Under the pieces are notes generated by a model, which was not told the origin of the DNA, searched no databases, and saw only the letters and a program-made list of their open reading frames with translations. Source: Chrysomallon squamiferum (taxonomy: Eukaryota; Animalia; Mollusca). From it: a DNA stretch of 64,000 nucleotides. Where the stretch lies: assembly GCA_012295275.1 (NCBI GenBank), contig CM022676.1, forward strand, positions 13,268,001 through 13,332,000, read 5' to 3'. Each line of letters begins with the position of its first letter. Positions within the stretch are counted from its first letter, which is position 1. The translations under genes and the position numbers were made by a program. Shown here piece after piece: positions 4,079 to 40,231 of the stretch.

Positions 4079-7000
4079 GTTCTGTAAACCTTTCTGGTTC
4101 TCCCTTTGCTGTGATCAGTCAAAGCTACACATTCCAGTGTTCTGTACCAGACAGCGTCACTTTACCTGTTAACTTTATAAGAAATAAAGATATTGTGTGT
4201 ACAGTTCTATCATCTTGTAGACAAGTTGATTCTGTTGCTGGTTACTCTTGTAAATGTGCTGGTCAGACTGCTGGAACTTCTACACTCTTCAACCTGACAA
4301 TAAACAATGTCAGTCTTGCAGATGAAGCTAACTGGACATGTACACATGGTAAAAATGTTAGCAAGAGTTTTGATTTACAAGTTTTCAGTAAGTTATTTGT
4401 TTTTATTTCATTAAATAATATTTATATTGTACTCTACTGTAATAGATATTAATTATAATTTATATACAATAGCAATTTTATGCAACAGTTGCATCACTAA
4501 TTACAGAATAAAAACTGAAAGATATACATAGAAAGTTGTTAGCAAACAAAAATAAGATATTTTGCATTATTTTTATTTCTATTTAATTTTTTTAAAACTT
4601 TAAAAAAAAAAAATTAATTAAGAAATTCAGTCATTCTGTATGGTAAAATTACTCCAAATTTCTAGGTCTCTGAAAGAGAATTGAAGATAAATACCAGTTG
4701 GGAAGGGGTGTTGCAGATAGTGTCTTTTTATAGTGTAGCTCACGATAAATACATGACACCATTTCGCACCAAGCAGCACAATAGTCTGATTTGATAATGT
4801 TATTTACACTTCTATAACAAAATATGTACTTCTGTCTTGAATAAAGTTAAACAGAGATTTATCCGGAGTTGTTTAAAGAAAATATATGGAGTAGTTCCAC
4901 TAAAAACAGTTGATAATTCCACTCAAAAATAATAGTTAATAGTATTAGGTATTCAAACAGAGTTGGTTAGCTGCTTTAATAATACTGTGAATACAAATGT
5001 CAGGTCTGTCCTTGTGATGCTGAAAAATACAAACATTTTTTTTTTGTTCAATTAGTAGTTTAGTGTGTAGGTGGTTTACCTTCACCTTATTAACCACAAG
5101 TTAACTCTACTTAAAAATTATAGTTGTTTCATTTTAGAGTTAATCAAAGGACCCCATTTTTATTACACAGTTGTAGATAGTGCAGGAATACTTTACTGGC
5201 AAATAAGAAGTATTTTATATTTAAAATGATGTTTAACAGTGAATAGAGGAACAAAATAGCTGATACTCAGTTGTTCAGTCTTTTGTTTACAGATTATAAT
5301 TCAAAATAATGTTCATATATCTCAAGGCATTTATTGAAGGTATACTGAAAGCAAACTATGAATATTAAGTTCTTATCCAGCAATCACTCCTGACAAATTT
5401 CAAGCCAGCTGCTGATACACAAAAGACATTTGAGCAGCTCACAGTCTAAAAGACCCTCAGTCTTGACATGAGCTGATCATCTATGACCAGTGACATCAAA
5501 CTGCCACCAAATCCTTCTTGCAATGACTTGCCTCCTGAACATTTTATATATGAATAGTACTTTACATGTTCCATCAGAAAAATCTCATTACAGCACTGCG
5601 GTATGGGAAAGCAAGTTTCAAGCTGTTGTTAGACATAACCATCCTGCATTTTGGGAGCTTATTCATTGCTTATCATTACAACATGGTGTCAGACTCAAAA
5701 AGCAAAAATAGCTGAAGTATTCACTAAACTAACAGTGTACAATCCTTCATCTGTACAAATGATCACATTTTCAGATTTGACAAAACTGCAGACAATGATT
5801 ACATATCTTCTGTTGCTGGAATACATTAAATCCAAAGCTCTTAATTGCACTTAAATTTGGCAATCAACTGCCAGCTTTGCTTCCATCTTGAGTGCATTTT
5901 TTAGATTGGATTTTGAACAAGGAAGTCACTTCAGAATAATTCATTGTCAAATAGCCTGGAATTGGTTAATTTGAAGAAGACAATAAATGAGTGCTACTGT
6001 GACTGTCTTCAGTAACGGCAGCCTGAAACTGGACTATGATGTTTTAGCATGGACATACTTTTTTAGATGAATGGCAGCATCATTATCAGAAAAAGGATCT
6101 TCATGCTATTCAGATTCCTATATTTTGATACCTTTCATGATTCTTTGATATCAATAATGTCATGGATATAGTGAGTTCAACATCAGGATTACTTTAATAA
6201 TCTCTACTTTACATATGTAGGTTGGTCATTATTGCACTATCACAATCAATCTCAGCAAAAGTTAAGTTGATTCAAATTGACATAATAATCAACGTAATGT
6301 TTCATAAACTGCTTGTTTCACTTGTGAAATACTAACATGTATATTGAAAAAGGAACTGCACATGCATGTTATGTATGTTGTGAAGCAGGCAGCCACCTGC
6401 TGTCTCCACAACACGAAACAGATGTTTGTAGTGTAACAAGATTGGTGTTGTATGTGAATTAAAATCTTTATCTAGATTAAACAGAAAAAAGGAAAACAAG
6501 ACAGAAAAAGAAAAAGAAAGAAAAAATTAAAATGCAGCCACATTATGGGGCTTTTTTTTTCAATTTATTTTTAATTTATTTTTTTAATTTTTAAAGTTTT
6601 TTTACAGTCACACTGGACTTTATAACTTTCTATGTGTATCTATTACTATTAATTCGTAATCCTATCATTGCTTTCATATATCTATTTTGGTTGTACAAGC
6701 ACAATATTTTTTATTATTATTCAAATTAACCTATTGCTAGGTCTTTTTGGGTGTTTTTAGTTGTTAGAACTGGGAATAGTCAACCACTGAATTCATATTG
6801 AGCAAAGATGTGACTGAGACTGAATAGTTATTTAATGCATTTGCTAAAAGTAGAAAGTAAATATAAATAACTAAAAGACATCTAACAAAACAAAATAAAT
6901 AAATCTAATTTCTTTTTATATATCTGAAATATATTATCTGAGACCAAATTAATATTAATAATCTATTGTTTAATTAAATTCTGGTTAAAAAAAAAATTCC

Positions 7001-37600: not shown

Positions 37601-40231
37601 TAGTTTATGTCAATTGTTTATTTTTCTGACATAAATTAATAAAATGACACATAATGATTGATTTTGTTTTTTATTTGTGTGATCATAAATTTATAGTTTG
37701 TTCAAAACGTCTTTAACAGAATAACAACTAATTATTTTATATTTGTTTGCTAATAAATGTTTGCCCAACAAATTTTAGTGTATATATTCAACTTTTCATT
37801 TTGTAATTTGTGCTGTAACTGTTGGATAAAATTGTTGTGTATAAATTTCAACTAATAATTACTACACTAAAGTACAACATAAAATAATAAAAAGTACTGA
37901 ATCAAATTAAAAAGAAATAACTTACTGAAAACTTGTAAATCGAAATTGTAGCTAACATTTTTACCATGTGTACATGTCCAGTTAGCTTCATCTGCAAGAC
38001 TGACACTGTTTATTGTCAGGTTGAAGAGTGTAGACGTTCCAGCAGTCTGACCAGCACATTTACAAGAGTAACCAGCAACAGAATCAACTTGTCTACAAGA
38101 TGATAGAACTGTACAAAATATATCTTTATTTCTTACAAAGTTAACAGGTAAAGTGACGCTGTCTGATACAGAACACTGGAATGTGTAGCTTTGACTGAAC
38201 ACAGCAAAGGGAGAACCAGAAAGGTTTACAGAACCTAAAACACATTTTGAGTAATTATATTAATAAAGTAAAGACAAAAATAAAATAAAATAAAATTAAA
38301 TTAAATTAAATTAAATAACACGAAATTAAATTATATTAAAGAAATAAGAAAAATAGGAAGAAAAAAAGTGTATTCTATCTCTCTGTCAGCCTAGACACAC
38401 ACACACACACACACACACACACACACACACACACACACACACATATACGTAAAAAAAAATAAATAATAAATAACAAACGTAACTGTTTTAATGAATAAAC
38501 ATTTAATAATCAATAAAGTTGTTTGAATTCTTTATTAATATTCCTTATTTGGAAATTATCTATGTATCTGTCTATCTGTGCGTGTTCTCTCTCCATGTCT
38601 TTCTCTGTGTGAGTGTGTGTGTTTGTGTGTGTGTTTATGTGTTTAAATAAAAAATCTTCAGTGTTCTTTTGGTGTTTGTTTGTTTTATTGTTATTTCTTG
38701 TTTTTCTCATCATTTCGTATTGTCTTATTTTCCTGGTTTTGGTTTCTACTGTGGTAAACAGTTATTCGTTTTGGTTGAGCAGGCGTTTCCGCATTTTAGG
38801 TTGTTTTGTGGGTTTTCTCTGTTTAAACTCTACATCAGTTTTTATTGGCGGTGATCTTAACGATTTGTAAGCCGTGAATACTAATTTTACTGTCATAAAC
38901 TACACCAACTATCCCACTCAAGTCAGGGAGAAAATTCTTTACTGGTCCCAACTAAAGCCGAGTTTTACACGACTGACAGAAACGTGGAGTGGTTGTGTGA
39001 CGTGTATCTGGTTTTCTCCTCAGTTATCAATTATGTAAAACTATAAATTTTACGTTCTTCTTGTATATTATCTTATATTCAAACCGAGCACATTACAAAT
39101 AGGTTCCAGATCATAAAAGTTTCACTAAATTGTATTTTTTATAGTTAAATTCGATAATTTATGATTTTAACATATAAAAATGAACTAATAACCTGACGCA
39201 AATGCTGATAGACAGACATACAGAAAAACTATGGACGGACAGACATATTTACACCGTTGAAACTTAATTTGTTGCTGATATTACTGTAAATTTTATTAAT
39301 ATTTTATTCATTTGTAATGATAATAAATAATAAATAATACACCTTCATTCTTTAGAATATCGATATCAAATAACGACTTTCGTATTCAGGACCGGATTTA
39401 GGCTTGTGTATTTGGTCGACCTGTTTTCTGGTCATTGTTTCTTAACCCCTTTTAAATCAGGTTTGGTTTATATTTAAGTATGAAAAATGTACAACTCTTA
39501 AAAAATATCAATACCAGAAAATGTATTTTGTAAAATTATTATCTGAGAATATATCTGATTTGTTAAAACTGAAACCGATTAAATATAGCATATACATATG
39601 TTTAGGAACTCTAAAAAAAAAGACGGAGTTTGAAATCCTAGGGCTTTAGTAATAGGTAACCATTGACTATAGAAAGATTAATGTAGAGAGAGAGAGAGAG
39701 AGAGAGAGAGAGAGAGAGAGAGAGAGAGAGAGAGAGAGAGAGAGAGAGAGAGAGAGAGAGAGAGAGAGAGAGAGAGAGAGAGAGAGAGAGAAAAGAATAC
39801 TGTATTACTAGCGTCCACAAATTTCATAAAAATTATATTTAATTAATACGAAGCTTAAATATCATAACAAATCAAGCTACCCCCCCCCCATATCATCATC
39901 TTCACTGACAGTTAAATAAGGATTTGTTCTATAGGCTTACAGAGAACGGGTTTTGACAAATAAGAACAAAGAAACAATTTTTCATTCACTGTATGAAACA
40001 TGTAAAACATTCAGACAACTTGAATATGCCTCTCTAATATCACTAAAACTATTTCACAAGGAAGAACCAAACAGTAATTATATGAAATAAATAACAAGTG
40101 TTGAGACTCGGAGTACAGGCTAGTGTTACATAAATGTCAGACGACTTTTCTAGTGTGAAACTTTAATAAAACTTACCTGTGCTGTATCTAATAAGCGTAA
40201 GAGAAACAAGTAAATATCTCAACAGCGCCAT
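28644..40231 (-). CDS. Gene B: multi-Ig type I membrane receptor (leader + 7 Ig + FN3 + TM + ITAM tail); putative activating partner of gene A
   Basis: Minus-strand phase-consistent exons: 40177-40231 (nearest intact leader), 37926-38234, 35732-36070, 34338-34601, 33682-34002, 32997-33293, 32214-32498, 31506-31766, 30996-31298 (FN3), 30531-30659 (TM), 30215-30248, 29936-29985, 28964-29062 (ITAM), 28644-28660 (GNVYV*). The first six Ig exons have the same lengths as in gene A (309/339/264/321/297/285 nt). Confidence 0.87.
28964..29062 (-). CDS. Gene B ITAM exon
   Basis: ttatag|AA CAT TCT ... encodes EHSEIPTTQYECLQSRDAPAYEKLKVSDNRPSS|gtaata, i.e. YxxL-x7-YxxL. Too short for the ORF track. Confidence 0.85.
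30531..30659 (-). CDS. Gene B transmembrane exon
   Basis: ESSSMATLGTGIGIGLAVGILLLCFPAIIILFILRRRGYTIC, flanked by ctatag and gtaagt; phase 1-1. Confidence 0.9.
32410..32790 (-). repeat. 190-bp tandem duplication creating a truncated extra copy of the Ig6 exon start (32597-32688)
   Basis: Two acceptors 190 bp apart (32688 and 32498). The first copy reads PPLSPDLVSSLSFPWLEGQSRNLTCTVSD*. Gene A has a single copy. Confidence 0.9.
35333..35690. repeat. (CA)n, (TG)n and (GA)n microsatellites
   Basis: Perfect dinucleotide runs at 35333-35418 and 35583-35690. Confidence 0.95.
36640..36960 (-). mobile_element. Paralogous MULE remnant in the equivalent intron of gene B
   Basis: The reverse complement matches 5330-5590 (gacaaattccaagccagctg, tgagcagctcacag, cttgcctc.t.aacattt.atatatgaata, ccatcagaa.aatctcatt). 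Confidence 0.5.
39685..39790. repeat. (AG)n microsatellite
   Basis: Perfect run of about 53 units. Confidence 0.95.
40177..40231 (-). CDS. Signal-peptide (leader) exon 1 for gene B: MALLRYLLVSLTLIRYST(G)
   Basis: ATG + 55 nt ending in a phase-1 G|gtaagt donor, compatible with the Ig1 acceptor at 38234. Confidence 0.75.

Follow-up and report, generated by a model that had tools for sequence, protein, structure and literature searches.

We analyzed a stretch of 64,000 nucleotides (nt) of the Chrysomallon squamiferum genome (contig CM022676.1, positions 13,268,001 to 13,332,000; hereafter the window, in whose numbering all positions are given) that contains two receptor genes, here called A and B. 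Both encode nearly the same six N-terminal immunoglobulin (Ig) domains and differ in the parts that follow: gene A ends in two inhibitory motifs of the immunoreceptor tyrosine-based kind (ITIMs), and gene B's own tail carries the core of the corresponding activation motif (ITAM). On balance, the sequence favors reading A and B as paired receptors that would share one ligand, B switching the cell response to it on and A restraining it. The two genes are likely two old receptor lineages whose ectodomains were matched afterwards.

Architecture of genes A and B and divergence of their shared block

Gene A, located on the forward strand and read from splice sites and frames, comprises Ig1 to Ig9, one fibronectin type III (FN3) domain, a transmembrane (TM) helix and a tail of 155 amino acids (aa). 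Gene B, on the reverse strand, consists of a signal exon, Ig1 to Ig7, one FN3 domain, a TM helix and a 74-aa tail, with a frame that is open across 14 exons (Table 1). All exons of both genes have AG/GT ends, and both models are open in phase. A Pfam scan was run with 14 stretches, 11 from A and B and three from a neighboring gene; 11/11 A and B stretches matched Ig or fn3 families, several of them under the curated cut-off. The genes are convergent, lying tail-to-tail 10 kb apart, and comparison of the window with itself revealed an inverted block (~3950-10570 versus 38370-32210).

Within this block the exons of Ig1 to Ig6 have equal lengths in A and B (309, 339, 264, 321, 297 and 285 nt), and the encoded domains differ at 7/102, 13/112, 6/87, 9/106, 12/98 and 5/94 aa, respectively. 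Altogether, 74 of 1815 nt (95.9% identity) and 52 of 599 aa differ. Beyond the block, the Ig7 domains are 33% identical (28/85, E 3e-15), and the FN3 domains and tails of A and B gave no meaningful alignment. The first-pass annotation of this DNA, made from the letters alone, had described a shared Ig1-Ig6 with identical exon lengths and few differences, divergent membrane-proximal domains and unrelated tails, all of which our analysis confirmed.

Synonymous divergence of the shared exons is low (pS 0.043, 18.5/427.5 sites) and equals the nonsynonymous value (0.041) closely; at four-fold sites 10/258 differ. The alignable parts of introns 1 and 2 differ at 282/1589 bases (17.7%; Fisher p 1e-14 against the synonymous and four-fold sites of the exons), introns 4 and 5 at 34/650 bases (p 1e-16 versus introns 1 and 2), and introns 3 and 6 showed no local match between A and B. 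The identity is a patchwork, with high tracts that extend into introns (~130 nt before Ig1, 45 nt after Ig2) and stop just past Ig6. Low synonymous compared to intron divergence in such a patchwork is likely the mark of gene conversion. A single recent duplication is rejected, since a block copied once could not have synonymous sites 4% apart and introns 18% apart. Duplication of a haplotype by the assembler is rejected as well: exons are 4% and introns 18% apart, the 3' halves are unrelated, and B-type sequence is present on both sides.

Table 1. Coordinates of gene parts and related elements in the window
Feature	Position	Strand	Content	Basis
Gene A shared block	4079..10562	+	Ig1 4079-4387, Ig2 7009-7347, Ig3 8371-8634, Ig4 8960-9280, Ig5 9655-9951, Ig6 10278-10562	splice sites, frames, Pfam Ig matches
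Gene A own ectodomain	11390..14459	+	Ig7 11390-11656, Ig8 11915-12211, Ig9+FN3 13821-14459	Pfam; G. aegis relatives; Ig6-Ig7 splice in RNA run X3
Gene A TM exon	14720..14857	+	helix without charged residue	hydropathy 2.98
Gene A short tail exons	15280..18272	+	15280-15301, 16683-16714, 17128-17193, 17890-17919, 18175-18272 (YENV, YANA)	phases
Gene A last coding exon	18456..18638	+	two ITIM-consensus motifs, LLYVGI and VEYVSI	
Gene B candidate first (signal peptide) exon, B-type	40177..40231	-	phase 1, hydrophobic	8/19 residues identical to N terminus of G. aegis P0177
Gene B shared block	32214..38234	-	Ig1 38234-37926, Ig2 36070-35732, Ig3 34601-34338, Ig4 34002-33682, Ig5 33293-32997, Ig6 32498-32214	
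Partial tandem copy of Ig6 exon start, 89 nt	32600..32688	-	own acceptor, ends in stop; just upstream of true Ig6 exon	
Gene B own ectodomain	30996..31769	-	Ig7 31769-31506, FN3 31298-30996	Pfam; G. aegis P0177/P0178
Gene B TM exon	30531..30659	-	helix without charged residue	hydropathy 3.12; 15/39 identical to P0178
Gene B tail exons	28644..30248	-	30248-30215, 29985-29936 (YQDV), 29062-28964 (YECL-x7-YEKL), 28660-28644 (stop)	
Second intact B-type signal exon copy	44238..44292	-		85.5% identical to 40231 copy; 10/19 residues identical to P0177
Unrelated signal-peptide-like phase-1 exon	41354..41432	-		scan
Relic B-type upstream region and signal exon, downstream of gene B	27393..28144	-	ATG at 27456, frame broken	68.6% to 44230-44991, 83% to 40169-40326
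Inverted relic of tail exon 17128-17193 of gene A with its flanks, contains a stop	23826..24253	-		84.8% over 428 columns

The exon at 40177-40231 is likely the first exon of gene B, and those at 44238-44292 and 41354-41432 are possible alternative first exons. A first exon of gene A was not found within bases 1-4078 of the window. Among its candidate tail exons, 15280-15301, 16683-16714 and 17890-17919 are the least certain; a candidate micro-exon at 15632-15658 was dropped because its phase clashes with the neighbors. Ig9 and FN3 of gene A are encoded together in an intronless exon of 639 nt, while the other exons each hold one domain, and the Ig7 exon of gene B has two in-frame acceptors 3 nt apart (31766-31769, reverse strand).

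Ig1 is V-like, and a predicted model of it was placed among antibody V domains (predicted local distance difference test score 74.7, built from 3 sequences); a fold search with this model returned no match at E<=0.001. Of the seven A/B differences of Ig1, four lie in predicted strands (30-34, 37-42 and 92-99), a number that does not suffice for claiming a cluster on a binding face. Ig1 (4081-4386) contains four additional cysteines inside the canonical pair, all retained in abalone, which likely form two added disulphides. In Siglecs, an N-terminal V-set domain binds sialic acid through an Arg on strand F. A and B were rejected as members of this family: the predicted strand 83-89 of Ig1 reads NWTCTHG and has no Arg.

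The gene B region is partly present in five public RNA runs. The contig sets X1, X2, X3 and X5, which come from at most two studies and cannot rank expression levels, were aligned over 31940-32800. Contigs with B-type bases in X1 and X2 join Ig5 straight to the true Ig6 acceptor at 32498, and the partial Ig6 copy is therefore likely skipped in splicing. B-type 3' ends of Ig6 were found in X1 and X2, X3 contains the exact Ig6-Ig7 splice of gene A, and in X2 Ig6 continues into an A-like Ig7 variant, with 4 of 30 letters different on visual count. The share of sequence words of 28600-38300 found in X1 is 0.24. The expectation is 0.241 with the complete set of B exons and 0.051 with gene A alone; this is a hint that all B exons are there, with contigs aligned at Ig6 only. 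The word shares of X2 to X4 (0.16-0.18) are marked as small by the tool and were left out of the argument.

Tail motifs, relatives and evolutionary history

Exon 18456-18638 of gene A holds LLYVGI and VEYVSI, and exon 28964-29062 of gene B holds a YxxL-x7-YxxL ITAM core (YECLQSRDAPAYEKL), as the first-pass annotation had read them. Chance alone, estimated from 200,000 shuffles of the tails, produced an ITAM core at a frequency of 0.4% and at least two ITIMs at 1.6%. The six-frame translation of the window contains 32 ITAM-core matches, so that the ITAM motif alone is weak proof; the real support for the motifs is their conservation in Gigantopelta aegis, a peltospirid vent snail. The same conservation, rather than transcripts of C. 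squamiferum, supports the frames of the two motif exons, on which the first-pass annotation had staked its proposal.

Relatives were searched for with the Ig9-FN3 exon of gene A in 1.84 billion representative sequences, which gave 714 matches. Among the best 150 of these 714, the best single-stretch matches are 61-63% identical, and the named ones belong to G. aegis. A search with Ig7 of gene B yielded two matches in 142 candidates, both from G. aegis. Compared to P0152, P0003 and P0004 of this snail, A is 57% identical in Ig8, 60-62% in Ig9-FN3 and 33-34% in Ig7. P0152 carries the cassette and the tail of A (54/95 identical), retains the ITIMs as LVYVGI and VEYMSI, and contains the tail stretches LEDNDLYY and RGDTYENV again. 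The scallop protein P0058 has the same end block with the motifs LVYLEV and DYADI. The Ig7-FN3-TM-tail part of B is found in G. aegis P0178, in which 30/74 tail residues are identical, YQDI is retained and YDSLQSHDATPYEKL takes the place of YECLQSRDAPAYEKL.

The similarity of B to its relatives changes along the protein. Compared to the B-type proteins P0177 and P0178 of G. aegis it is 58-61% identical in Ig7, 49% in FN3 and 41% in the tail, and 36-39% in Ig6 and 27% in Ig5; compared to A, it is 95% identical in Ig6 and 88% in Ig5. The first domain of P0177 gave no match to the shared Ig1. The shared Ig1, Ig4, Ig5 and Ig6 match the abalone protein P0156 (34-41%), whose later domains run Ig7-8-9-FN3 as in A; its tail ends in YSHL-x7-YTEL, compatible with both ITAM and ITIM patterns. 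Trees of 7-9 hand-chosen family proteins each placed Ig7 of B with the G. aegis B-type (92/98) and rejected an A+B clade (approximately unbiased test, p-AU 0.032), and grouped Ig6 of A and B together (85/92). These data correct the picture of a recent activating twin: A and B appear to be old paralogues that were matched later in their ectodomains.

We propose that the ITIM lineage (A) and the ITAM lineage (B) would predate the split from G. aegis, and that the inverted layout at a distance of 10 kb would have allowed repeated copying of Ig1-Ig6 between the two. Introns 1 and 2 (~18% apart) would represent an older conversion layer, the exons together with introns 4 and 5 (~4-5% apart) newer tracts. 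A was probably the donor and B the recipient, since the block in B is flanked by B-type sequence, a signal exon ahead of it and Ig7-FN3-TM-tail after it. Most simply, a B-type gene would have received an A-type ectodomain, which recurrent conversion then renewed.

Both tail types are spread across the molluscan family, and their patterns overlap. Filtering of 180 family proteins for a TM helix plus a tail of 30-300 aa left 31 (10 of them near-copies in one cluster); an ITAM core is present in 8/31, and two or more ITIMs without an ITAM core in 3/31. Scallop relatives of three species have visibly similar Ig-FN3 regions but differ in their tails, which are ITAM-type in P0057 and P0124 and A-like ITIM-type in P0058; this hints at shuffling of tails and ectodomains in bivalves too. 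The nephrin-like scaffold of the first-pass annotation survives as an automatic name carried by relatives, a label rather than evidence of orthology. Besides the nephrin- and hemicentin-like labels that it had expected, the relatives carry CEACAM5-, syg-2-, DSCAM- and titin-like ones.

Several observations weigh against this history and against the paired set. Grouping of B with the G. aegis B-type at Ig6 was not rejected (p-AU 0.053), nor was it at Ig5 (p-AU 0.205), where the tree has no clear branching, and the tree supports lie under the starred level of the tool. The direction of copying rests on abalone, because A-type Ig1-6 of G. aegis was not recovered by the Ig2 protein search (0/228 candidates among longer proteins) or by a profile search from a poorly aligned alignment (1/7994 candidates, the query itself); two weak Ig6 loci among 123 metagenome stretches were not used. 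The motif classes blur: A's tail also has two YxN motifs, B lacks D/E at -3 from the first tyrosine and is ITAM-like under a stricter consensus, and the ITIM pattern is matched by 7/8 of the ITAM-core tails, including P0178. The dN/dS between the two copies is 0.93 and gives no sign of selection keeping the ectodomains alike between conversions; such a value is compatible with plain drift as well as with the fast post-conversion change described for Xenopus pairs (PMC5112662). The Ig6-Ig7 joint of gene B was not seen in the four contig sets over the aligned region, where B-type contigs extend just two letters beyond the exon; of the loose ends listed, the two that get as far as a following exon enter A-type Ig7. 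Finally, X5 has other intron flanks around Ig6, and X2 has the A-like Ig7 variant. Diagnostic bases are mixed between the copies as well, with the B base at 32253 in 0/4 runs and the A base at 32325 in none; together these findings likely reflect mosaic alleles or further paralogues.

Gene B could, in principle, be no working chimeric receptor at all, being a decaying or mis-spliced copy or a join peculiar to the assembly. The missing joint to its Ig7 and the absent B base at 32253 would fit this, as would the partial Ig6 copy with its stop, whose junction is uncovered in 4/4 runs (there are no contigs over 32520-32606 in X1, X2, X3 and X5, which as contig absence was not counted as proof). 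We consider this explanation very unlikely. The frame is open and the splice sites are intact throughout, contigs with B-type bases use the true Ig6 acceptor, the word share of X1 is as expected with all B exons, and the uneven divergence, the lack of relation between the 3' halves and the B-type flanks of the block are unlike a collapsed or doubled haplotype.

Relic exons, neighboring features and the possibility of neutral conversion

On the strand of gene B, four signal-peptide-like first exons are present (44238-44292, 41354-41432, 40177-40231 and 27401-27456), three of which are copies of one B-type exon, two intact and one broken. The extra ones may be alternative promoters of B or leftovers of deleted B-type genes. 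The relic of an A tail at 23826-24253 lies downstream of the broken B-type signal exon, which suggests the loss of a gene that began as B-type and ended as A-type. Between genes A and B, an inverted repeat of ~285 nt with 87.7% identity (25248-25940) resembles transposon ends.

A third single-pass membrane gene is located at 46740-60000 on the reverse strand, with candidate exons at ~59880-59780, 58160-57840, 54720-54510, 49985-49342 and possibly 46790-46740. The exon at 58160-57840 is Ig-like by eye, and 49985-49342 encodes a TM helix along with a long acidic tail in which tyrosines occur singly. None of its 3/3 stretches matched an Ig or fn3 family in Pfam, and tblastn detected no similarity to A or B.

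As a general background, exons stay convertible while introns drift apart. The match of the ectodomains might be neutral: both tails would work, similar inverted neighbors in a busy cluster would swap DNA, and B would be one of many shuffled members whose match has no selected role. We consider this explanation unlikely. The dN/dS of 0.93 speaks for it, as do the relic exons and the partial exon copy, which mark a rearranging locus, and the signs of further copies in the RNA contigs. An Ig orthogroup labelled CEACAM5 is expanded to 130 members in G. aegis (PMC7895826, supplement) and points in the same direction, being only a lead for A and B. On the other side, conversion ends just past Ig6 and spares Ig7, TM helix and tails, it recurred over at least two time layers, and the frame of B is open across 14 exons. 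Moreover, the first copy into an ectodomain of 30-40% identity had to be fixed once.

Proposed function and comparison with known receptors

The first-pass annotation had likened the two genes to vertebrate paired receptors. Conservation of the two tails, the conversion signature and the opposite direction of the genes support this design; Siglec-16, among the examples given there, signals via an adaptor and not via an ITAM of its own (PMC5701461), so that the CEACAM type is the closer parallel. Compared to published descriptions of such pairs (PMC3533184, PMC5112662), the ectodomains are close (547/599 aa identical in Ig1-6) and the membrane-proximal domains differ. Judged by motif, A is an ITIM member with two consensus matches conserved in G. 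aegis, and B an activating member with its own ITAM, as in the CEACAM type, conserved in P0178. The genes are linked in opposite orientation with conversion limited to the ectodomain (pS 0.043 versus 0.177 in introns), and the trees are supportive below the starred level. The adaptor subtype (KIR, LILR and Siglec-16, with a short tail and a charged TM helix) does not apply, since the helix of B has neither Arg nor Lys and its tail is 74 aa long. By its sequence, the locus qualifies under the criteria used for Xenopus ceacam pairs, namely opposite orientation, converted ligand-binding exons and ITIM versus ITAM (PMC5112662).

CEACAM pairs (human CEACAM1/CEACAM3, Xenopus ceacam301/303) resemble A and B in having ITIMs in one gene and an ITAM-like motif in the other's own tail, in opposite transcriptional orientation, and in few synonymous exon changes next to poorly conserved flanking introns (PMC5112662). 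They differ in that conversion covers a single N exon there (PMC5112662) and six domains with some introns here, and in the FN3 domain present in both A and B. [quoted passage not shown] Together with KLRC, KLRI and PIR, this pair exemplifies 'merohomogenization' (PMC3210942), in which, as for A and B, the ligand-binding part of old opposing receptors was homogenized after speciation.

Invertebrate Ig receptors with ITAM or ITIM tails are already known from oyster, Hydractinia and Botryllus; only the matched pair is new. In oyster, the motif EGDYTELGQCDPETPYEKL of CgIgR interacts with CgSyk (PMC6994640), and CgNCAM1, a protein with two ITIMs, interacts with CgSHIP2 (PMC11841013). Like A and B, both are molluscan multi-Ig receptors with such tail motifs, and the end of the B motif follows the same PxYEKL-like pattern as CgIgR (DAPAYEKL versus PETPYEKL; PMC6994640). 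They are described as separate receptors with differing ectodomains, the accessible text reporting neither a shared ligand-binding block nor conversion, and the likeness is one of motif (PMC6994640, PMC11841013). Hydractinia Alr (PMC9546547) and Botryllus FcoR (PMC12582321, PMC12065747) are clustered Ig receptors with ITAM or hemITAM and ITIM tails, Alr with an FN3-like fold; they differ in being allorecognition loci of colonial animals, and FcoR3/4 swap motifs through alleles and splicing of one gene. At such loci (Alr, fuhc) alleles predict fusion or rejection, a phenotype that is not known from snails; for A and B there are hints of allelic mosaics. No conversion-matched two-gene pair is reported for them in the accessible text, where 'gene conversion' occurs 0 times in PMC12582321 and PMC12065747 and once, as a possibility, in PMC9546547. 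In the literature check proposed in the first-pass annotation, no two-gene, conversion-matched ITIM/ITAM pair of a mollusc or other protostome was among the open-access matches listed; subscription journals and the Alr and FcoR supplements may hold one. In a 2025 review of invertebrate Ig proteins, the word 'paired' does not occur in the accessible text (PMC11999971).

A paired on/off set could also serve a non-immune job such as clearance of dying cells, neural wiring or epithelial adhesion, like Draper-I and Draper-II of Drosophila; we regard this as distinctly unlikely. Draper is not known as an Ig-domain protein. As a protostome example of an activating form opposed by an ITIM form, Draper-II opposes Draper-I in glial engulfment, the two being isoforms of one gene for which no conversion is needed (PMC9008705). 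In the PDB, abalone P0156 matches adhesion molecules such as CEA, SYG-2, Robo2 and NCAM2, the CEA match being a generic multi-Ig one. However, the fast change of Ig7 between A and its G. aegis counterparts (33-34%), the signs of allelic mosaics and recurrent conversion would fit host-microbe conflict better than they would fit wiring genes, which are conserved. In oyster, the ITAM and ITIM Ig receptors examined so far act in haemocytes, where they bind microbes (PMC6994640, PMC11841013).

For the paired immune set that we favor, we infer every step from ligand to output by analogy. Once the ligand is bound, the tails of A and B alike would be phosphorylated by Src-family kinases. SHP or SHIP phosphatases would then dock on A, much as CgSHIP2 interacts with CgNCAM1, and Syk would be recruited by B to elicit phagocytosis or inflammation, in line with what is reported for CgIgR. 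A ligand clustering only A would lead to tolerance, and one clustering the shorter B as well would lead to attack. The likeliest setting would be haemocytes or epithelia that sense microbes or self. Peltospirid snails of two genera take up their endosymbionts from the environment (PMC7895826). A bolder and rather doubtful extension is that molluscs independently evolved CEACAM-style decoy receptors within a large Ig-FN3 family, with ITAM genes repeatedly capturing the ligand-binding domains of ITIM genes by conversion, and that the vent-snail pair weighs tolerance of symbiotic bacteria taken up from the environment (A) against attack on mimics (B).

In vertebrates, inhibitory and activating receptor pairs matched by conversion are regarded as characteristic of innate immunity exposed to pressure from pathogens. 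Automatic annotation hides a pair like A and B under names such as titin-like, DSCAM-like or uncharacterized. If our reading is true, the same evolutionary solution would have arisen in protostomes on a different Ig scaffold, and two separately reported oyster pathways, ITAM-Syk and ITIM-SHIP, would be linked into one circuit. With one ectodomain and two outputs, the pair would make it possible to test directly how an invertebrate distinguishes the microbes it tolerates from hostile ones.

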